NCBI RefSeq assembly: GCF_006345805.1
Contig: NC_043000.1
Coordinates: forward strand, 125,054,001 to 125,118,000
DNA length: 64,000 nt
From: Octopus sinensis
Taxonomy: Eukaryota
Direction: 5' to 3'
In this document: positions 5,612 through 61,317 of the stretch, piece after piece
Numbering within the stretch: the stretch's first letter is position 1
Layout of the letters: every line of letters begins with the position of its first letter
The notes under the pieces: model-generated
Databases searched by the model: none
The model's input: the letters and a program-made list of their open reading frames with translations, nothing else
What the model was told of the DNA's origin: nothing
Program-made: the position numbers and the translations under genes

Positions 5612-7073
5612 ACTCTATAAGATGCACCAAGTGTAAGCTATGGACACATAAGAGGTGCAGCAATGTCATAGGAAGGCTAACTAGGAAGATGGTTTTTGTA
5701 TGTGGTAGATGCTTGGGAGCATTAACCTCTGAAAATCTGCAGAAAACAACTTCCGTCACTTTCCAGGGGAAAAAACTAGAAGTAGTTGATAGCTTCCGTT
5801 ATCTTGGTGACCAAGTCAGTAGTGGGGGTGGGTGTGCTGAAAGTGTAACGGCTAGAGTAAGAATAGCCTGGGCAAAGTTTAGGGAGCTCTTACCTCTGTT
5901 GGTGACTAAAGGCCTCTCGCTCAGAGTAAAAGGCAGACTGTATGATGCATGTGTACGAACAGCCATGCTACATGGCAGTGAAACATGAGCCGTGACTGCT
6001 GAGGACATGCGTAAGCTCGCGAGAAATAAAGCTATTATGCTCCGTTGGATGTGTAATGTCAGTGTTCATAGTCGACAGAGTGTAAGTACCTTGAGAGAAA
6101 AGTTGGACCTAAGAGGCATCAGATGTTGTGTGCAAGAGAGACGATTGCGCTGGTATGGTCATGTGGTGAGAATGGATGAAGATAGGTGTGTGAAAAAGTG
6201 CCACACCCTGGCAGTTGAGGGGACCTGTGGAAGAGGTAGACCCAGGAAAACCTGGGTCGAGGTGGTGAAGCACGACCTTCGAACTCTAGGCCTCACCAAG
6301 GAAACGACCAGAGACTGAGACCTATGGAAGTATGCTGTGCGTCAGAAGACCCGGCAAGACCAGTGAGAACAATCAAAATCAAATCATATATCAGAAAGCA
6401 GGGGTTAAGTGACCCATCCGTTCGTGTCCACTGTCAGCCTCGTCTAGCACCCATGTCGGTGATACGTAAAAGCACCATTTGCTCGTGGCCGTTTGCCAGC
6501 TCTGTCTGGCCCCGTGTCGGTGGCACGTAAAAGCACCATCCGTTCATGTCCGTTGCCAGCCTCGGCTGGCCCCCGTGCCGGTGACACGTAAAAGCACCGT
6601 CCGTTCGTGGCCGTTTGCCAGCTCTGTCTGGCAACCGTGTCAGTGACACGTAAAAGCACCATCCGTTCATGTCCGTTGCCAGCCTCGGCTGGCCCCCGTG
6701 CCGGTGACACGTAAAAGCACCGTCCGTTCGTGGCCGTTTGCCAGTTCTGTCTGGCCCCGTGTCGGTGGCACGTAAAAGCACCATCCGTTCGTGTCCATTG
6801 CCAGCATCGCCTGGCCCCTTGCCGGTGACACGTAAAAGCACCATCCATTCATGGCCGTTTGCCAGCTCTGTCTGGCACCTGTGCAGGTGGTATGTAAAAA
6901 ACACCCACTACACTCGCGGAGTGGTTGGCGTTAGGAAGGGCATCCAGCTGTAGAAACACTGCCAGATCTGACTGGGCCTGACGAAGCCTTCCAGCTTCAC
7001 AGACCCCAGTTGACCCGTCCAACCCATGCTAGCATGGAAAGCGGACGCTAAATGATGATGATGATGATGATGA
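5612..7073 (+). mobile_element. 5'-truncated RTE-clade LINE (partial PHD, thumb, 3' UTR array, (GAT)n tail)
   Basis: ORFs 5689-5988 and 5992-6318 (EVVDSFRYLG, RLRWYGHV, GRGRPRKTW) are near-identical to the copy at 39327; 8 tandem ~61-bp UTR units; (GAT)n tail. Confidence 0.93.
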
Positions 7074-25064: not shown

Positions 25065-28000
25065 TACAATGCTGCTGCTTATGTTTACAATGCTGCTAAC
25101 ACCAGCCCCTGCCTACGGCAGGGCCCAGAACCTTAACATGCCTAAATGCTTGAATGTTGTCAAGTTGGAAGACCGATCAGACGAAAAATGCCTAAAAAAC
25201 GTTCACCACCACCACAACAACCCTCTTCTTTTCAGGCGCTGAATTGCATCCCTCCTCCTCACATCTCCTTCCCAGTTTTCAGAGTTGGCACTGTCAATGT
25301 TGGTACACTGAAAGGTAGGTCTAGTGAGATTGTAGAGATGCTTGAGAGAAGACGGGTTGATGTATGCTGCATACAAGAGAGGTGCGTCAGCTAGGGTCCT
25401 CACAGGCAAGGCACATAGGTATAAAGTCTTCTGGCAAGGTAACATAGATGGGGTAGGGGGTGTAGGCATTCTCCTTGTGGAGAAATGGGTGGATAAGGTC
25501 ATAGAGGTTGTCAGGGTTTGCGATAGAGTGCTTAAGCTCAGGTTAGTCCTACAGAGTGGCACATATCTCCGCCTATGCCCCACATGCGGGGCTACCAAAT
25601 GATCAGATGGACCACTTTTATGATACCCTTCTACAGGCTACCTCAAAGACTAGTGGCAAGGACCTCATCTTTGTTGGTGGAGACTTTAATGGGCATGTTG
25701 GGCGGGAATCGGGAATCTTCACTGGGGTACACGGTGGCCATGGTATTGGCACCAGAAATGATGAGGGAACTAGACTACTGGAATTCTGTGATGCATGTAA
25801 CCTTTTAATCTGCAACACTAACTTCAGGAAGCCTGACTGCCACCTTATAACTTATCAGTCAGGAGACTCCGCTAGCCAAATAGACTTCATCCTCACCAGA
25901 CAGCGGGATGCAGGGTCGCTCTTAAATACAAAGACCCTCCTGGGTGAAGAGTATATCCCTCAGCATAGGCTAATCATTAGTGACTTTAGGCTTGAGGCCA
26001 CAAGGACTCCAAAAAGCAGACCAATCCAGAAAAGAAGGATTTGGAAGCTAAAGAACCCTTCACATGGTCAGAGATTTAGGGACATCCTTATCAAGAAATT
26101 TGATGAGAGGGAGGAGGAGCTACAGACGTCAGACATAGAAGGTAGCTGAAAATTCCTACGGGACAGCTTGCTGAGTGCCACAGATCAAGTCTGTGGATGG
26201 TGCAAAGTCCCTTCCAGACCTAGAGTTACGTGGTGGTGGAATAGTGCAGTAGACAAAGCCATTAGTGCAAAGAAACAGGCCTGGAGAGCCTGGAGGGATG
26301 GGTATAGCAGGGAACCATACCAAGTAGCCAAAAGGAAGGCCGGGTGGCAGGTATAGATAGCCAAAGATATAGCAGAAAGTAAGGAGTTTCCCAATGTCCA
26401 GCGACGTGAGGACCAAAGAACTGAGGTATTTCGGATTGCTAGACAGTGTGTGAGAGAAAATAGTGATGTTACAGGAGAGAAATGTGTCCGCATGGATGAT
26501 GGGGCACTTGCTTTTAATGTTGGTGAAAAGAAAGAGGCTTGGAGAAGCCATTATGAAAGACTGCTGAATGTGGAGAATGAATGGGAGGAGGAGAGCCTGC
26601 CAAATGTTGACCCAGTAGAGGGACCAGCTATCCAAATAGACAGCTCCCTTGTAGTTAAGGAAATTAAGGGTATGAAACCAGGTAAAGCCTCTGGCCCATC
26701 AGGTATCACTGCTGAGATGCTTAAAACAGCTAGTTATGTGGGCTATGGCCTAGTCACCCGCATTGTAAACCAGGTAGTTCATAATGGAGTCATACCCAAT
26801 GACTGGCGTAGCAGCACCATAGTCAACTGCTACAAGGGTAAGGGTGATGCTCTAGATAGAAATAACTACAGGGGTATTAAACTGTTGGATCAGATGAAGG
26901 TCACAGAGAGGGTCATAACCCATCTCATTAGGGAGACAATTTGCTTAGTTGAGATGCAGTTCGGTTTTGTGCCGGGTAGAAGCACCACTGATGCTATATT
27001 CCTGGTCCGACAACTGCAGGAGAAGTACCTAGCTAAAGATAAACCCCTCTACATAGCTTTTGTGGACTTGGAGAAAGCCTTTGACAGGGTTCCCTGATTC
27101 CTTATCTGGTGGTCGATGCGGAAACTGGAGATTGACGAATGGCTAAGAAGGGCTGTGCAGGCTCTATACAGAGAGGCTGTCAGCAAGGTTAGGATTGGCA
27201 ACGAATATAGTGAAGAATTCCGGGTAGAAGTAGGTGTACACCAAGGCTCAGCCCACAGTCCCCTTTTATTCATCATAGTCCTCCAGGCAATAACAGAGGA
27301 ATTCAAACAGGTTGCCCCTGGGAGCTCCTCTATGCTGATGACCTGGCTCTCATAGCAGAATCACTACCGGAACTAGAAAAAAAATTTCGGGTGTGGAAAC
27401 AAGGGTTGGAATCAAAGGGCGTTAGACTAAATGTAGCGAAGACCAAAGTTATAGTAAGCAGAAAGGCGAACTCAGCACACTGCTCGATCTGTAGGAAAGG
27501 TGTAGGTAGAAACTCCATAAGATGCACCCAGTGTAAGCTATGGACGCATAAGAGGTGCAGCAACATCAAAGGGAAATTAACTGATAAGATAGCTTTCATG
27601 TGCGGCAGATGCACAGGGACAATAGACACCACAAATACTCAGAAAACAGATTCCATCACACTCCAGGTGGAGAAACTAGAAGTAGTTGATAGTTTCCGCT
27701 ACCTGGGTGACCAAGTTAGTAGTGGAAGTGGATGCTCAGAGAGTGTCACCACTAGAATACGAATAGCCTGGGCAAAGTTTAGAAAGCTCCTACCCCTACT
27801 GGCGACAAAGGGTCTCTCACTGACAGTGAAAGGTAGATTGTATGATGCATGTGTGTGAACTGCCAAGCTTCATGGCAGTGAAACATGGGCCGTGACTGCA
27901 GAGGACATGCGTAGACTTGAAAGAAATGAAGCTAGCATGATCTGCTGGATGTGTAATGTCAGTGTGAATGCACGACAGAGTGTAAGCACCCTGAGAGAAA

Positions 28001-28791
28001 TGCTAGACATAAGAAGCATCAGATGCGGTGTGCAAGAGCGACGCTTGCGATGGTATGGTCTGCGGATGGATGAGGAGAGATGTGTGAAGAAGTGCCGCTC
28101 CCAAACAGTTGAAGGAATCAGGGGGAGAGGTAGACCCAGGAAGACATGGGATGAGGTAGTCAAACATGACCTCAAAGTGTTGGGCCTCACTGAGGCAATG
28201 GCAAAGGACCGAGATCTCTGGAGATGTGCTGTGACTACAAAGACCCGGGATGCTTCCGGCTCCAGTTCCGCATAGCCCCTGCCCATTCAAAGTACCTTGG
28301 ATCCCGGAACGTCTCGCTGTGCTTGAGGAGACCTGTTGAGTCAAGTGCATGTACACGAACATCGAAACAAATATCAATGGAAATAGTAGTTGTGATACCT
28401 GTGTCGGTGGCACATAAAAAGCACCATCCGAACGTGGCCGTTGCCAGCGCCGCCTTGACTGGCTTCTGTGCTGGTGGCACATAAAAAGCACCATCCGAAC
28501 GTGGCCGATGCCAGCGCCACCTTGGCTGGCTTCTGTGCCGGTGGCACGTTAAAAGCACCAACCAATCGTGGCCGATGCCAGACCCCCCTGGCACCTGTGC
28601 AGGTGGCATGTGAAAAGCACCCACTACACTCGCGGAGTGGTTGGCGTTAGGAAGGGCATCCAGCGGTAGAAACCTTGCCAGATCAGACTGGAGCCTGGTG
28701 CAGCCCTGACTTCCCAGACCCCGGTCGAACCGTCCAACCCGTGCTAGCACGGAAAACGGACGTTAAACGATGATGATGGTGATGATGATGA
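25060..28791 (+). mobile_element. Near full-length RTE-clade LINE (APE + RT with inserted PHD finger), inactivated
   Basis: APE motifs VGTVNVGTL, CIQE, SAYAP, GDFNGHVG, IDFIL, QHRL; RT motifs NYRGIKLL, QFGFVPG, VDLEKAFD, GVHQGS, YADD, FRYLG; several stops and frameshifts; 4-unit UTR array and (GAT)n tail. Confidence 0.95.
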
Positions 28792-28978
28792 TATGTATAT
28801 ATACTTTTCATCTATAATAGTGTATAAATAATTTATGTATTTATACATGAAAGAGGTGACCTTTGACAGGACACCTTACATACTATACTAAATATGTAAA
28901 TTGTTTTATATGAAAATATGTCATCTATTGACTTTATTACAAATGCTAGCCACCGGTATGAAAATGTTTCTAATTTTC

Positions 28979-29029
<51 letters not shown>

Positions 29030-29135
29030 GGTTATCAGTAATAATGTAGGGTGAAATTAATTAATTTAGAAAAATCATTAATTTCACCATGTAGATTTTG
29101 GCATGTAAAAGCCCCATTTGAGGAAAGTTTAAGTA

Positions 29136-29577
29136 ATACTAAGTAATTAAGGGTTTAGCAACGATTTGCCTCACCACACACCGAATTTAGAAATAGCAGT
29201 CAAAGAGTTATAGCTATTCCTTTCTACTAAAAGAAAGATCTCAGTAAAACCACAGCACTTGAAAGGCAAACACAGACAGGCAAGAGAGAAAGAAAATGAC
29301 GACAATCGATCATACAATAAAAAGTCACCTACGGACGTACGTTTCGAAATCAAGTTTTAGGAAAGCATGAGAATTAGATAATCCTGTCTTACCCAACTTC
29401 TTTTCTCATCAGCGTAGGATACTACAATTATGAATAATTGTATATTAAATTTCGCGGTACTAGAAGACATCATCTCAACTGATAGTATCAGAGCGAGCCG
29501 AAGCCGCTATTGACTGCTATTTCTAAATTCGGTGTGTGGTGAGGCAAATCGTTGCTAAACCCTTAATTACTTAGTAT
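29136..29577. mobile_element. 442-bp element bounded by perfect 68-bp inverted repeats and carrying a hammerhead ribozyme
   Basis: 29136-29203 is the exact reverse complement of 29510-29577. Confidence 0.9.
29328..29418 (-). ncRNA. Type I hammerhead ribozyme
   Basis: Minus strand reads CCUACG-CUGAUGA-GAAAagAAGUU..AACUUgaUUUC-GAAA-CGUACG-UC-CGUAGG: 6-bp stem I, full catalytic core, extended stem II, minimal palindromic stem III and a GUC cleavage triplet. Confidence 0.88.
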
Positions 29578-29756
29578 ATATATATATCTGTCATCAGTGG
29601 AACACAAATCCAAAAAGGAGGACACTAAGTTATAGAGCAGTATATGATATAAATAAAGTTAGAGAAGGCTGGTTTATGGGATTACCTTGAGTTTCATGTC
29701 CATAAAGTGCTTAGCACTTGGCATATCATCACATTCCAAAACTTGTTGGCCTAAAG

Positions 29757-30381
29757 CCTCTCTAGAATATGGAAGAGGAAATGACCTTACTACACAATGT
29801 CAACAGCAGGGAACTGTCTCCCTTTGGCTATCAGTCGCCAGTAACCCTGTTATCTTGTGGGTTCCAATAGGCCAGCAGGAATTTTATGAAATGTAAGCAT
29901 GGTCTGAAGACCTCTGTTCAGCAGTTAAGGATATTCCCCAGGTCGTGGGAGTCCTTTAGAATCCTCACCCATTCTGCTATGCATAGTTTACAGTGCTTGG
30001 TCCCATGTATGAGGGGATACCAGAAAGGAGATACATTATGTCTTTAACCAGCCATGTATGGCAGCTGAAAGACGACAGGATTCCATACACAATATTATGG
30101 AGAATCTTAGAAAATCCAGGCCCCTTCATAAACGGGACCAAGCACTGTAAACTATGCATAGTGGAATGGGTGAGGATTCTAAAGGACTCCCACAACCTGG
30201 GAAACATTCTTAACTACTGAACAAAGGTCTTCGGACCATGCTTACATTTCAGAAAAATCCTGCTGGCCTATTGGAACCCACAAGATAACAGGGTCACTGG
30301 TGATTGATAGCCAAAGGGAGACAATCCCCTGCTGTTGACATTGAATAGCAAGGTCCTTTCTTTCTCCATATTCTAGAGAGG
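29757..30381 (+). mobile_element. Penelope-like 3' end with inverted duplication (260-bp arms)
   Basis: Arms 29757-30016 and 30121-30381 are imperfect reverse complements; plus strand encodes SLTSHVWQLKD..YTILWRIL..HCKLCIVE..ILN..PCLH, a PLE C-terminal motif. Confidence 0.8.
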
Positions 30382-31009
30382 TCACTCACTAGCGAGTGAC
30401 CTCTCGAAAAAAAGAATCAGTATTGGTTTGATTCCTTCAGCTAGAAGTTCTTCAAGACAGTACCCCAGGATGGCTGCAGTCTAATGACTGAGACAAGTAA
30501 AACATAAAAGAAGTATTCTACTAAAAAATATTGAGAATTCCTTCTGTTTAATGTCAAATTACTTTTATATATAACTTGACATTGGTGCTCAATGCAGCCC
30601 TGCAGTTTGTCAGTTCCTTGTGAAACTGTCCAACCCTTACCAGCAGGGAAAGCAGATGCTAAATTATGGTGATGATGATAATGATGAGGATAAAAACAAG
30701 CATTAATATATGTATTTATGTAGCAACGTATATATATATATATATATATCTGTCTGACTGTCTGTCTGTCCGTCTGTATGTATGTATGTATGTATGTCTT
30801 GTTATCACTGTGCAAATTAAGAATTTTAGGTCATGTCCTGTTCATCATATCTGTACCCAGTGTCAATAAACTGAACTGAATTAGGGATTATAGTGAAAAG
30901 AAGAGGGCAACATGTTACTGTTAGTGTAATAGACGCAAATGAAAACTTGACAGAAATCTAATAATATGAAAGGATTCATCACTAGCTTCCAAGGAAATAA
31001 GAACACAAA

Positions 31010-33595: not shown

Positions 33596-34587
33596 GGTGG
33601 TGAAGCACGACTTTCAAATGTTGGGCCTCATGGAGGCAGTAACAAGTGACAAAGAGATATGCTGTGTATGAGAAGACCCAGCAAGCCAACTGAGACTGTA
33701 GCCATGGCCTATGCTAGTTTCGCATAACCAGCCCATTTAAGAGTACCCTTCAATCATTGGGCAATATATTGTGCTTCAGAAGATCTGTTGAATCAAGTGA
33801 AATCATTGTCATGGCTGATGCCACTACCGCCTGACTGGCTTCCATGCCGGTGGCACATAACAAGCACCATTCGAGTGTGGTTGATGCCAGTACCACCTGA
33901 CTGGCTTCCGTGCCAGTGGCAGGTAAAAAGCACTATTGAAGCGTGGTCATTGCCAGTGCTGCCTGGCTGGCTCCCATGTTGGTGGAACACAAAAAGCACC
34001 ATTCAAGCACAGTCGATGCCTGTGCTGTCTGACTGGCTCCTGTGCCAGTGGCATGTAAAAAGCACCATTTTAACATGCTTGTTGCCAGTGTCATCCAACT
34101 GGCTCCTGTGCTGGTGGCATGTAAAAAGCACTATTTGAGCATGGTCGATGCCAGTGCCGCCTGACTGGCTCCTGTGCTGGTGGCATGTAAAAAGCACCAT
34201 TTGAGCATGGTCGATGCCAGTGCCACCTGACTGGCTCCCGTGCCGGTGGCATGTAAAAAGCACCATTCGAGCATGGTCATTACCAGTGCTGCCTGGCTGG
34301 TTCCCACCCATGTCAGTGGCACATAAAAAGCACCATTCAAGCATGGTTGATGCCAGTTCCACCTGACTGGCTCTCATGCTGGCGGCACGTAAAAAGCACC
34401 CACTACACTCTCAGAGTAGTTGTCATTAGGAAGGGCATCCAGCTGTAGAAACCTTGCCTAATCAGATTGGAGCCTGGTGCAGCCTCCTGGCTTCACTGTC
34501 CTCAGTCAAACCGTCCAACCCATGCCAGTATGGAAAACGGACATTAAACGACAACGACAACGACAATGATGATGATGATGATGATGA
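33596..34587 (+). mobile_element. RTE 3' end with ~9-unit UTR array
   Basis: VVKHDFQMLGL C-terminus, ~66-bp tandem units, (GAC)/(GAT)n tail. Confidence 0.9.
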
Positions 34588-38339: not shown

Positions 38340-38848
38340 AAGACCTGTTGAGGCAAGTGAAATCGAAATCAAAATCAAATTCGATGACTGGCATCTGTGC
38401 TAGTGGAGTGCTAAGAGCACCATCTGAGCATGATCGTTGCCAGAGAAGCAAACTGGCTTCTGTGCTGGAGGCATGTAAAAAGCACCATTCGAGTGTGATT
38501 GTTACCAGCATCGCCTTACTGGCACATGTGCTGGTGGCATGTGAAAAAACCATTCGAGCGAGGTCATTGCCAGTGCTGCTGGACTGGTTCCTGTGCAGGT
38601 GGCACCTAAAAAACACCATTTGAGTGTGACCGTTGCCAGTACCGCCTGACTGACCTTCGTGCCAGTGGCACATAAAAGCACCCACTACACTCTCGGAGTG
38701 GTTGGCATTAGGAAGGGCATCCAGCTGTAGAAATTCTGCCAGATCAGATTGGAGCCTGGTGCAGCCATCTGGTTCGCCAGTCCTCAGTCAAATCGTCCAA
38801 CCCATGCTAGCATGGAAAGCGAACGTTAAATGATGATGATGATGATGA
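38340..38848 (+). mobile_element. RTE 3' UTR/tail fragment
   Basis: UTR units, conserved tail and (GAT)n. Confidence 0.85.
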
Positions 38849-39326
38849 TATACACATATATATACACACATACACACACACATGGAGATGTTTACTGGGA
38901 TGTAGTGGGTGTGAATAGCTTGTGTATAATAAATTGCATATTGTTCCTATACAAATGTACACATGTGTGTATTAGTGTGTGTATAATACAGTTTACGTGC
39001 AAATAATATATAGACATAAACACACAGGTACAAATGCCATTCTTTGAAATGAAGATATGCAGACAAAGCACTTTTCGAAGACATTTGAATTGAATCAGAT
39101 AATCAACAAATCATAGAATAATATTGAGAACACCAATTTTTACCATTATTGTGGCACAATAGTTGTCATTCTTATTGCCAATATCATCATTACCATCATC
39201 ATCATCCACTGCAACAACAACCACCAACACCAACTTATCACCCCCATCATCATTGGTGTTATCATTATCATCATCTTTTTAACATCATTCTAATCATTGT
39301 CTTCATTGTTGCGTTTATCATCATCA

Positions 39327-42300
39327 AGTGACAGAATACTTAAGATTAGAATAGTGCTTCATAATAGATTAGCAACCATTATATCGGCCTATGCCCCTCA
39401 GCCAGGGCTACCCGATGGACAGAAAGACAGTTTCTATGACACCCTACTGCAGACCACCTCATCGACGAACGACAGGGACCTTCTCTTTGTGGCTGGTGAT
39501 TTCAATGGGCATGTTGGACGACATGCTGGGGGCTTCCATGGCGTACATGGAGGCTACGGTTATGGTTCCCGCAACGAGGAGGGAACCAGGCTGCTGGAGT
39601 TCTGCGATGCAAATAGTCTTATGGTCTGCAACACTAACTTCAGGAAACCAACAAGCCACCTGGTCACCTACCGATCGGGCCGGCATACTAGCCAAATCGA
39701 CTACATCCTTGCCAGAAAAAGGGAAAGATGGCTGCTTATAAATGCCAAAACCTTCCCAGGCGAAGAATGCACCCCACAACATAGACTGGTAGTTAGTGAC
39801 TTTAGGATCAGGACTAAGAGGGCGACTAGAAGACGACCAACATGGAGAAGAAGGGTCTGGAAGCTTAAAGCCCCTGCGAATAGACAGAGATTTAGAGATA
39901 TGTTACTTGAAGCCTTTGACGAAGTGGAAGGGGGTATAGCTACACATGGGGTAGAAGACAACTGGACGTTTCTGAGGGACAACCTGCTGAAAGCCGCTGA
40001 CCAGATCTGTGGCTGGTGCAAAGTCCCCTTAAGACCCAAAATAACGTGGTGGTGGAACAATATTGTTGACAGGGCTATTAGACAAAGAAACAGGCTTGGA
40101 AGGCCTGGAAGAATGGTGGTAGCAGGGAAGGGTATCAGACTGCCAGAAGGGAAGCTAGGAGACAGGTCTATCTAGCCAGAGGGGAAGCAGATAAGAGAAA
40201 ATTTGCCAATGTCCTGCGCCGTGAGGATGAAAGACTTGAGGTATTTCGTGTTGCAAGACAGTGTGTGAGAGAGAATCGTGATGTGGTAGGAGAGAAATGT
40301 GTTCGCATGGAGGATGGTTCACTTGCGCTAAATGAGGATGCAAAGAGAGAAGCTGGAGACGCCACTATGAAAGGTTACTGAATGAGGAAAATGAATGGGA
40401 TAAAGAGAGTCTGCCGAATGTTGACCCTACAGAGGGACCAGCTATCCGAGTTGATAGTTCCGTGGTAGCTAAGGCAATTAGAAGCATGAAGACAGGGAAA
40501 GCCCCAGGCCCATCAGGAATTACTGCAGAGATGCTCAAAATATCTGGCAGTGTCGGCTATAACCTAGTCACCCGTATAGTCAACCAGGTGATACACGAAG
40601 GAGTCATACCCAATGACTGGTGCAGCAGCATACTAGTCAACTGCTACAAAGGTAAAGGTGATGCCCTAGATACAAATAATTACAGAGGTATCAAGCTGTT
40701 GGATCAAGTAATGAAGGTTACGGAGAGGGTCATAGCCCAACTAATTAGAGAGAGAGTTAGTTTAGATGAGATGCAGTTTGGGTTCGTGCCAGGGAAAAGT
40801 ACCACTGATGCTATATTCCTGGTAAGGCAGCTGCAGGAGAAATACCTAGCCAAAGATAAGCCCCTGTACCTGGCTTTCGTTGACATGGAGAAAGCTTTTG
40901 ATAGGGTCCCCCGATCCCTTATCTGGTGGTCAATGAGGAAACTAGGGATAGATGAATGGCTGGTGAGGACTGTGCAAGCCATGTACAGAGATGCCGTAAG
41001 TAAGGTTAGGGTTGGCAACATGTACACAGAAGAATTCAAAGTAGAGGTTGGGGTCCACCAGGGTTCAGTACTCAGCCCCCTCCTATTTATCATAGTACTC
41101 CAGGCAATTACGGAGGAATTCAAGACAGGCTGTCCCTGGGAGCTCCTCTACGCTGACGACCTTGCTCTTATTGCTGAGTCACTATCAGAACTGGAGGAGA
41201 AGTTCCAGGTGTGGAAGGAGGGTTTAGAATCAAGGGGCCTTAGAGTCAACCTAGCTAAAACCAAAGTACTAATAAGTAGAAAGGTAGACAATCCACAAAT
41301 ATCTTCAGGAAGATGGCCCTGCTCGATCTGTAGAAAAGGTGTAGGTAGAAACTCTATAAGATGTACCCAGTGTAAGCTATGGACACATAAGAGGTGCAGC
41401 AATGTCAAAGGAAGGCTAACTGGGAAGATAGTTTTTGTATGTGGCAGATGATCGGGAGCATTAACCTCCGAAAATCTGCAGAAAACAACTTCCGTCACTT
41501 TCCAGGGGGAAAAACTAGAAGTAGTTGATAGCTTCCGTTATCTAGGTGACCAAGTCAGTAGTGGGGGTGGTGCGCTGAAAGTGTAACTGCTAGAATAAGA
41601 ATAGCCTGGGCAAAGTTTAGGGAGCTCTTACCTCTGCTGGTGACTAAAGGCCTCTCGCTCAGAGTAAAAGGCAGACTGTATGATGCGTGTGTACGAACAG
41701 CCATGCTACATGGCAGCGAAACATGGGCCGTGACTGCTGAGGACATGCGTAAGCTCGTGAGGAATGAAGCCAGTATGCTCCGATGGATGTGTAATGTCAG
41801 TGTACATACTCGACAGAGCGTTAGCACCTTGAGAGAAATGTTGTACCTAAGAAGCATCAGTTGTGGTGTGCAAGAGAGACGATTGCGCTGGTATGGTCAT
41901 GTGGCGAGAATGGATGAAGATAGGTGTGTGAGAAAGTGCCAATCCCTAGCAGTTGAGGGAACCCGTGGAAGAGGTAGACCCAGGAAAACCTGGGACGAGG
42001 TGGTGAAGCACGACCTTCGAACTTTAGGCCTCACTGAGGAAATGACCAGAGACCGAGACCTTTGGAAATATTCTGTACGTGAGAAGACCAGGCAGGACAA
42101 GTGAGCCCAGCCCACTTATGAATGCCTTTCCTCCCTTGGACACAAAGACCGGTTGAGGCAAGCGAAGTCGATATAGAACCTCATCCGACGACAGACACCC
42201 ATGCCAACCCCCCATGCTTGCGAAGACATGTTGGGGCAAGCGAAATCGAAATCGAAACCGAATTGAACCAGCCAGGATCCCTGGCCTGGTGGTACGTAAA

Positions 42301-43680: not shown

Positions 43681-43689
43681 CTGACTATA

Positions 43690-45600
43690 TGAAAAGCATG
43701 ATGTGATTGCAATAGATGTTTTATTGGTTGAATGATATTTCGGCAGCTAGTATGTCTTTTTCAAGTTCAAAAGGAAAAGTGATAAAAATTCAAAATTATA
43801 GAAATTCAAAATCAAAGCATAAACAAGAACCAGTGTCCCCATGTTGATGGAATGACGTCATCAGTCTTCAGATTTCAAGTTTACAACTAGCAAAAAGAAA
43901 AAAAAACAAAAATTCTTACATGGTCATGAACCAATACTCTGGTTACGGTTCATTGATGACATCTTCTTTGTGTGGGAAGGATCACAGGATAGTTTAATTG
44001 ACTTCTTGCATTTCTGTGACTGTTATGCTAAAAACTATAGCTTTAAGGCCAACATAAAATTTATGTCTAGTTTTTCAAAAACTAGTGTTGAATTTTTGGA
44101 CACAAAAGTTAAGTTTAATAGTAACAGAAAAGGCGGTGAGCTGGCAGAAACATTAGCATGCCGGGTGAAATGCTTAGCGGTATTTCATCTGTTGCTGCAT
44201 TCTGAGTTCAAATTGCACTGAGGTCGACTTTGCCTTTCATCCTTTCAGGGTCGATTAAATAAGTACCAGTTATGCATTGGAGTCGATATAATTGACTTAA
44301 TCCGTTTATCTGTCCTTGTTTATCCCCTCTGTGTGTAGCCCCTTGTGGGCAGTAAAGAAATAAGAATAGTGAGAGAGTTATTTTGCAAGCCCATATCATC
44401 CCACATTTACCTCCACCATCACTCTATTTTATATAATTCAGTCAAATCTGAAATCCCAATTTTTGAGGATAAAATGGATTTGTACTGACATAGGGGATTA
44501 CTGGAAACATGCAAATGCTTTTGTACACTATTATGTCAAATGTGGTTACAGTGAATCACAATTAAAGGAAATAGCAAATGGCATAGCAAAGAAAGTCAAA
44601 CTTTCACACATAATTTTAGCAAAGTACAATATCTGACAGAATTCCATTAGTGATTAACTGGCACTGATATTTCACTGGCATTTCAAAAGTGCTACATGAA
44701 AGTTACCAACATCTTTCAGAAAAATATCCTCGTTTCAAACAAATATTTCCTCAGCTGCCTATTTCAGCCTTTAGATAGAATAAAAATATAAGAGAACTAT
44801 TAACCTCTACTTCTGACTCCAAGAAAACTAACATTGGAATTTCTGCACACTGTACTTTGAAAAACAGCTGCAAGAGAGGTAAGCCCTGTTTATTGTGCAA
44901 CAACATGAGTCAAGTCAATTCCATCAGGAATCATAACAGGAATGTTATGATTTACATGGAAGTTGGGACGTGTAGAGATTCCCATTTGGTGTATGCAGTA
45001 GAATGCATGAAACACAATTTGATTTATGTTGGTTGTACAACAGAACAATTAAAGAAAAGATTCAGTGAACACAGATATGATGTCAGGCACAATAACGGTA
45101 GTTTGACAGAACTCACCAAACATTTTACATCAAACGGCTGCAATTTTGGAAAAGACTTGAAAATGCATATTCTCAGAAAATATTCTTAATCTGCTACACT
45201 TTCAGTCCTCAAAATGCATGAGGAGAAATATGTTTGTGAGTTATTAACATCATGTCCTGGAAGGATGAATAAAATGACAGGAGAATTTCATTATATTTAC
45301 ACAAAAAAGTTTGATTAAATATTCTTCTTTTTCCATTTCTTTTTTTCTTTCCTTTACTTTTTTCTCTTTCTTTTTCTTTTTGCCAGTTGTCAACTTGAAA
45401 ATTGAAGACTGATGATGTCATTCCATCAACATGGGGATGTTGTATGCTCTCATTCATATTTTGGATATGAATTTCCATAATTTTGAATGTTTATCCCTTT
45501 TCATTTTGAACTCAACAAAGACACACTAGCTGTCAAAATACCATTCTACCAATAAAATATCTATTGAAATTGCATCACACACTTCGTATTGTCTACTTAC
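43690..45600 (+). mobile_element. Degenerate Penelope-like element (RT + GIY-YIG) with inverted pLTRs
   Basis: WLRFIDDIFFVW..VEFLD (RT); C..CLLC..LVYAVEC..IYVGCT..LKKRFSEHR (GIY-YIG); 43690-43910 is an inverted copy of ~45340-45590; a SINE M is inserted at 44131-44365. Confidence 0.85.
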
Positions 45601-60884: not shown

Positions 60885-61317
60885 GGGCATGGCCGATGAC
60901 AGTGCCGCCTGATTGGCACCTGTGCCAGTGGAACGTTAGAAGCACCATTTGAGTGTGTTCATTGCCAGGGCCACTAACTGGCTCCCGTGCTGGTGGCATG
61001 TAAAAATAGCAACATTCGAGTGTGGTCATTGCCAGTGCCACCAGACTGGCTCCTGTGCAGATGGCATGTAAAAAACACCACTTAAGTGTGGGCGATGCCA
61101 ATACTGCCTGAATGGCTCTCATGCTGATGGCACATAAAAGCACCCACTACACTCTCAGAGTGGTTGGCATTAGGAAGGGCATCCAGCTGTAGAAACTTTG
61201 CTAGATCAGATTGGAGAATGATGCAGGCTTCTGGCTCGCCAACCCTCAATTAAACCGTCCAATTCTTGCCAGCATGGAAAGTGGACGTTAAAAGATGATG
61301 GTGATGATGATGATGAT
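60885..61317 (+). mobile_element. RTE 3' UTR/tail fragment
   Basis: 4 UTR units, conserved tail and (GAT)n. Confidence 0.85.

Follow-up and report, generated by a model that had tools for sequence, protein, structure and literature searches.

A hammerhead-bearing repeat with mirror-image ends in Octopus sinensis, probably inserted by Penelope-like element machinery

Introduction

Penelope-like elements (PLEs) insert in a manner that can be described as untidy but recognizable. As set out in PMC8557442 and PMC3846280, typical insertions consist of a whole unit that is flanked by an inverted, 5'-truncated copy, with a bias toward (TA)n targets and with an optional tail, the latter reported as being 30–40 bp in length and as found at one end only. 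PLEs of the Hydra clade combine (TA)n targets with canonical hammerheads (PMC8557442), and Penelope-13_HM in particular is listed as pairing a hammerhead with an inverted 5' piece at a (TA)n target (supplement of PMC8557442). Those PLE hammerheads which possess a palindromic helix III cleave poorly, and do so as dimers, with most such motifs found singly, i.e., as probable truncated PLEs (PMC4209133, PMC6765202).

The PAc Poseidon element of Anolis supplies a mechanistic perspective. Its reverse transcription is initiated internally, from two start sites, giving rise to copies with as well as without a tail, with the PLE endonuclease cutting AT-rich DNA and the ribozyme being protein-assisted (PMC11167929). 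Among octopuses, Octopus vulgaris is described as carrying 190 Penelope-like families, which together represent 6.83 percent of its genome (PMC13282606).

Considered here is a 64,000-nucleotide stretch of Octopus sinensis DNA (contig NC_043000.1, positions 125,054,001 to 125,118,000; 'the window'). An initial annotation of this window had pointed to positions 29136–29577 as a hammerhead ribozyme enclosed by perfect inverted repeats, in an arrangement viewed as previously undescribed. I argue instead that the somewhat longer stretch of 29030–29577 is in all likelihood one insertion made by PLE machinery, and that its mirror-image ends most likely are the usual by-product of PLE-type insertion. 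The architecture, on this view, is an ordinary one and not that of a novel kind of mobile element.

Layout of the insertion

The insertion consists of a direct copy that runs on the minus strand from 29509 to 29030, of a 68-nt end that is joined to this copy head-to-head and in inverted orientation, and of (TA)n at both outer ends. Its parts, from left to right, are as follows.

29010–29029: (TA)n tract, which from the sequence lies at the 3' end of the insertion and is its probable target.
29030–29135, minus strand: 3' extension ('tail') of about 105 nt, found at one end only; at family-level depth in four of four sequencing runs, with a depth step at about 29131.
29136–29203, minus strand: left arm, the final 68 nt of the direct copy's main 3' terminus, which is not the element's end in the 29030–29577 copy.
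29204–29327, minus strand: family sequence on the 3' side of the ribozyme, non-coding and rich in pyrimidines, with a predicted hairpin at about 29221–29248 (from depth and folding).
29328–29418, minus strand: type I hammerhead motif, with its predicted cut at 29334/29333.
29419–29509, minus strand: family sequence on the 5' side of the ribozyme, ending at the point of 5' truncation (from depth).
29510–29577, plus strand: right arm, an inverted copy of the 68-nt 3' end (68 of 68 positions), head-to-head with the truncated direct copy across a locus-specific junction.
29575–29588: second (TA)n tract, on the opposite side of the insertion, where family depth stops (from sequence and depth).

The perfection of the arms, as originally asserted, stands. 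That is, 29136–29203 and 29510–29577 match as reverse complements at all 68 positions, with the match extending neither inward nor outward. The arms do not, however, enclose the element as had been supposed, as the repeat goes on past the left arm to about 29030, i.e., approximately 105 nt beyond, and this tail is predicted to fold into a hairpin of at least 12 bp at about 29046–29091. TA is present at both arm ends, with the left TA sitting within family sequence, and a duplication of the target site would be unreadable within (TA)n.

The locus also is non-coding, just as had been claimed, with no open reading frame worth noting in the six frames of 29025–29509. No analysis of the window or of the sequencing runs found reverse transcriptase or endonuclease sequence linked to the repeat family. 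By blastn, 29100–29620 has no second copy in the window and no likeness to a decayed PLE located at 43.7–45.6 kb. Pattern scans for motifs from the locus returned no matches among metagenome contigs and GTDB genomes, nor for the arm motif among viral contigs. Two phage matches to a 16-nt motif from the ribozyme were set aside as chance, the rest of the ribozyme being missing.

Copies of the repeat family in public sequencing runs

Of 24 listed public runs, 20, carrying five organism labels, contain part of 29040–29750. Four of these were compared, using contigs only and at a likeness of 80: X1 and X9 (both organism A), X2 (organism B), and X14 (organism D). None of the 20 runs is registered as RNA. 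The classification of X9 as an RNA run is a guess, and its cover consequently is not counted as expression. Summed depth is high and unbroken over 29035–29490 in all four runs. In X1 it ranges from 1.5e4 to 7.9e5 over the repeat versus 38.9 for a contig that is identical to the unique right flank, and the repeat thus is taken as exceeding single copy by three to four orders of magnitude, with the caveat that summed contig depth is not equivalent to copy number.

Depth also indicates where the family ends. Cover does not stop at the left arm's outer end but carries on as far as the (TA)n tract of 29010–29029, and at about 29131 there is a rise of 1.9–3.1 fold for the three DNA-type runs and of 1.2 fold for X9. 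Two X14 contigs, in addition, join (TA)n and a different flank at 29132. The arm end, at about 29131–29136, therefore is a recurrent terminus, with 29135–29030 serving as an optional extension of it. One X9 contig carries other sequence in place of the window's (TA)n, such that these data do not fix the 3' end of the family. On the other side, depth drops 10–31 fold going from the ribozyme to 29467–29490.

The right arm is different. Depth at its inner junction (29505) is 47.7 in X1, where it is supplied by one contig which appears to span that junction, and is 0 in each of X2, X14, and X9. The inner junction of the right arm for that reason is specific to the 29030–29577 locus, rather than being a feature of the family.

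Among other copies, nine joints were found, of which five are of inversion type (with arm coordinates mapped), two are internal deletions, and two come from a neighbouring repeat. The inversion junctions are 29075/29336, 29141/29204, 29195/29520, 29216/29566, and 29260/29516, while a sixth inversion point, 29162/29544, was found outside of these nine joints. Depths at inversion junctions are 38–158 versus the 39 of the unique flank contig in X1. Three of the five inversion joints are weaker, having one side that is shorter than 30 letters, and joints with a short side or with a likeness of less than 95 often derive from other repeats. As the initial annotation had framed it, fixed ends would speak for a miniature inverted-repeat transposable element (MITE) and variable inversion points for a PLE. 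Six differing junctions, among them the three weaker ones, fall on the PLE side of that distinction.

Such an element, i.e., a MITE that had captured a ribozyme and that moves by cut-and-paste, its terminal inverted repeats being of 68 bp (or of 65 bp plus a TA duplication), was the alternative originally offered, and at this locus alone the resemblance is real: The arms are perfect, the size is a short 442 bp, an open reading frame is absent, and TA is found at both arm ends. Family depth nonetheless passes the outer end of the left arm, where the bin of 29107–29130 is 250–775 fold deeper than that of 29587–29610, just outside of the right arm. The left arm, that is, is not an end, the right arm's inner junction either is missing or has the depth of a single copy (the above 47.7, 0, 0, and 0 at 29505), and inversion points differ between copies. 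With inverted repeats that are neither terminal nor common to copies, unlike those of MITEs, this explanation is rejected as highly improbable.

An intron overlapping the ribozyme was considered as well, given splice-like signals seen by eye near 29392 or 29327 and 29258. No joint was found that matches it.

The hammerhead motif

Read on the minus strand from 29418 to 29328, the motif possesses a stem I of 6 bp, a core of CUGAUGA (29412–29406) and GAAA (29345–29342), a stem II domain of 60 nt (29405–29346) with a 4-bp base, and a stem III of 2 bp that is closed by a palindromic tetraloop, with GUC preceding the predicted cut at 29334/29333. Core, stems, and predicted cut all are as initially drawn. 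Present here are the CUGANGA and GAAA boxes of type I hammerheads, an NUH triplet, and three helices in order, with helix III available in the dimer fold only. Relative to the direct copy the motif is sense-oriented and close to the 3' end, and I propose that it is the pseudo-LTR hammerhead of the repeat family.

Searched with a hammerhead descriptor that demands a perfect 6-bp stem I, the window gives a single match, while 100 Markov-shuffled windows taken together also give one. The covariance-model search that had been recommended was not similarly supportive: Rfam gives no matches in the window at gathering score and, at E<=10, five matches among which there is no hammerhead family. The 60-nt stem II is a likely reason for Rfam missing the motif.

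Folding predictions depend on context. Pair probabilities for stems I and II are 0.82–1.0 in contexts of 116 and 171 nt, and about 0.1 in a context of 479 nt, while the 103-nt fold is not unusually stable (z of -1.44, with 14 of 200 shuffles equally good). In the best monomer fold the core is paired with the cleavage triplet, i.e., the ribozyme is misfolded in silico. The best dimer fold, by contrast, adopts the canonical topology of a double hammerhead, in which helix III forms between the two molecules over 8 bp and the core is left open. The earlier suggestion of a dimer-type ribozyme thus agrees with these models, in which the active topology is predicted for the dimer and not for the monomer. 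The energy gained upon dimer formation is unremarkable, as 39 of 100 shuffles do as well, and it is not used here as support. Cleavage accordingly is predicted only as a dimer or with help from protein. The single copy at 29030–29577, for its part, probably is inert, as its transcript would hold one ribozyme, predicted to be misfolded, along with arms that are predicted to fold into a 68-bp duplex.

Variation among copies was viewed over 40 listed places, unphased, out of 77 that are variable. Six of these 40 are within the hammerhead, five in the apical portion of stem II and one at U4, with none at other core positions, in stem I, or in stem III, a constancy which, given that 40 of 77 places are involved, is suggestive only. 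U4 (29411) is C in 30–44 percent of depth in the three DNA-type runs, and in 78 percent in X9. U4C, that is, is a natural variant of the ribozyme core. Common as well is the insertion of a single base into stem II, on its 3' strand, representing 12 of 42 listed indel rows.

These same data bear on whether the hammerhead might be a chance, or instead long-dead, match in some unrelated repeat, e.g., a SINE or rolling-circle element, that has experienced a local inversion. The missing Rfam match, the ordinary folding energy, and the wide variation at U4 are all what such a view would predict. A descriptor rate of about one match per 100 shuffled windows is less easily accommodated, as are three stems and both core boxes that are in register, and common variants that are concentrated in the apical loop. 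Nor is there a tRNA-like head, with ARAGORN finding zero tRNA genes in 28500–30500. A chance or long-dead match consequently is judged to be quite improbable.

Age of the insertion

The insertion was described at the outset as being of recent origin, but that conclusion is looser than the perfection of its arms might seem to imply. Zero differences over 68 positions bounds divergence only to less than 4.3 percent, which, at the rate that PMC13282606 implies, amounts to approximately 6 million years. Outside of the arms, furthermore, the window's copy differs at seven places from at least 94 percent of depth in all four runs.

Comparison with known hammerhead-bearing elements

The closest resemblance is to endonuclease-encoding (EN+) PLEs that insert into (TA)n, i.e., those of the Hydra clade such as Penelope-13_HM and Hydra-1_Obim, along with Neptune and Naiad, as described in PMC8557442. 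Shared with these are a type I hammerhead that lies on the sense strand, a few hundred nt short of the 3' end, as well as a palindromic stem III, 5' truncation, an inverted 5' piece, (TA)n, and an extension at one end. Partial tandems, of the sort that form direct pseudo-LTRs in PLEs, are absent from the copy. Differences are that the truncated copy here is without an open reading frame, EN+ PLEs being defined by one for a PLE-type reverse transcriptase and a GIY-YIG endonuclease, that its stem II domain is 60 nt versus about 12–25 in the EN+ PLEs of that source, and that the tail is about 105 nt, with its far end not fixed, versus the published 30–40 bp. By eye the family is set apart also from the Hydra-1_oBim hammerhead and from the 3' ends of Naiad_Obim and Naiad_Ovul (PMC8557442), and short-motif searches of the supplement of PMC8557442, in which line breaks can hide matches, yielded no related place among the matches listed. 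Precedent for a long stem II comes from PLE-X1 of spike mosses (File S2 of PMC8557442), with its enlarged loop II of about 30–35 nt. PLE-X1, though, is found in plants, lacks an endonuclease, and targets 28S rDNA, and no sequence relation to it is claimed (PMC8557442).

With PAc of Anolis (PMC11167929) the family has in common two 3' termini which can be explained by internal initiation near a stem-loop, AT-rich targets, and no sign of cleaved RNA serving as the inserted template. The PAc open reading frame, on the other hand, begins inside of its hammerhead (PMC11167929), while here none follows the motif.

Animal non-LTR retrozymes (PMC7229834, 10.64898/2026.07.22.740005) require more extended consideration. 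These consist of tandem monomers, with one ribozyme each, and the locus could be a dispersed, partly inverted monomer, of a kind that is cut from tandem transcripts by the hammerhead, circularized, and then re-inserted. The hammerhead has the canonical metazoan build (stem I of 6 bp, stem II base of 4 bp, stem III of 2 bp, palindromic loop; PMC4209133), a build which is described as marking retrozymes (PMC7229834). Similarly, the family resembles retrozymes in being non-coding, in its very high copy number, and in a probable dependence on PLE proteins (PMC7229834, 10.64898/2026.07.22.740005). Retrozymes have been reported, moreover, as PLE derivatives with many solo monomers, and their consensus lengths reach 972 bp (10.64898/2026.07.22.740005), making possible a monomer that is longer than the stretch compared here.

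What is seen, however, is one hammerhead in the window, no tandem array at the locus, and inversion junctions instead of tandem ones. None of the nine joints goes backward in the manner of tandem repeats, and thus no monomer of less than about 470 nt is seen, a result that bears on monomers of that size at this locus only. No depth step is found at the predicted cut site, and depth declines toward the 5' side, unlike what is expected of equal-copy monomers. A loose end in X9, beyond 29030, does by eye resemble 29470–29485, and a genuine match there would complete a tandem monomer some 460 nt long, but the resemblance to 28919–28931 is equally good and no joint was called. A retrozyme origin thus appears to be unlikely.

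Insertion by PLE machinery, to return to the preferred reading, is consistent instead with the truncation, the inverted piece of 3' end, the (TA)n, and the sense hammerhead, which all fit, and to this extent the link to PLEs that was initially drawn holds up. The supposed novelty of the arrangement does not, as inverted flanks, an optional tail, and (TA)n already are presented as typical of PLEs in PMC8557442 and PMC3846280. Literature listings on octopus hammerheads and on hammerhead-bearing MITEs yielded nothing describing this repeat family, although, with 190 Penelope-like families reported from Octopus vulgaris (PMC13282606), it may well already be present in an existing repeat library.

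Neighbourhood within the window

The decayed PLE noted above spans 43683–45593, 14 kb from the insertion. It includes a reverse transcriptase-like fragment at about 43856–44221 (recognized by eye, with no Pfam match) and a GIY-YIG fragment at 44779–45189 (PF01541, E of 3e-5) that is preceded by a cysteine motif of the Neptune/Nematis type. There is also a repeat inserted within it, and it possesses inverted flanks of 233 nt that are 81 percent alike, each with a CUGAUGA half core, which is all of a hammerhead that is recognizable there. In sequence it is unrelated to the 29030–29577 insertion, though its build is the same.

Immediately to the right of the insertion, at 29611–29715, is a separate, multi-copy repeat with a sharp end at 29715, past which 48–61 contigs in each large run go on into different sequence. 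Beyond it, at 29757–30381, are inverted arms of 260 nt, 90 percent complementary and 105 nt apart, i.e., a MITE or other fold-back insertion, and then a 30-nt hairpin (30376–30405).

The window more generally is rich in microsatellites and in fragments of LINEs, a repeat landscape that would fit a cephalopod genome. Two LINE copies, at 25547–28275 and 39294–42104, have long open frames that encode parts of an endonuclease and of a reverse transcriptase, and these, like the fragments, we take to be RTE-like. A family of tandem arrays with units of 61–67 nt recurs at 6414–6899, 28397–28621, 33810–34400, 38452–38652, and 60941–61139, with several of these arrays found at the ends of LINE copies.

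Proposed mechanism of insertion and its implications

By reference to published PLE biology, the insertion may have come about as follows. A GIY-YIG endonuclease would nick the (TA)n tract, with reverse transcription then starting internally on the RNA, at either of two favoured positions, that is, at about 29136 or instead approximately 105 nt further, the latter giving rise to the tail. Reverse transcription would stop early, at 29509, resulting in 5' truncation. A second cDNA, of 68 nt and from the main start site, would be joined in inverted orientation. The arms, as so proposed, would be identical due to both having been derived from the same template at the time of insertion.

What sort of element the family represents is a further question. 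About even odds are given to its being the 3' terminal part of an autonomous PLE. Put more tentatively, it could be a non-coding dependant of a PLE. That less probable alternative would consist of a dispersed retroposon of about 0.5 kb or longer, with a long-stem-II hammerhead, a long hairpin tail, and no coding part. It possibly would exist as thousands of copies, shared by several species that are related to each other, with its insertion into (TA)n accompanied by PLE-type inversions.

Regardless of which applies, the locus offers a clear example of a PLE-type insertion that mimics a MITE, and the family is an apparently uncatalogued and very abundant hammerhead-bearing repeat that is missed by Rfam. 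Were the family to be non-coding, then it would be a SINE-like dependant of PLEs, with its insertion anatomy as direct evidence of non-coding hammerhead elements being moved by PLE proteins from uncut RNA rather than by way of a rolling circle. It also would then lend itself well to testing a recent proposal, namely that the retrozymes of animals are non-autonomous passengers of PLEs, since its thousands of copies record where reverse transcription has started and stopped.
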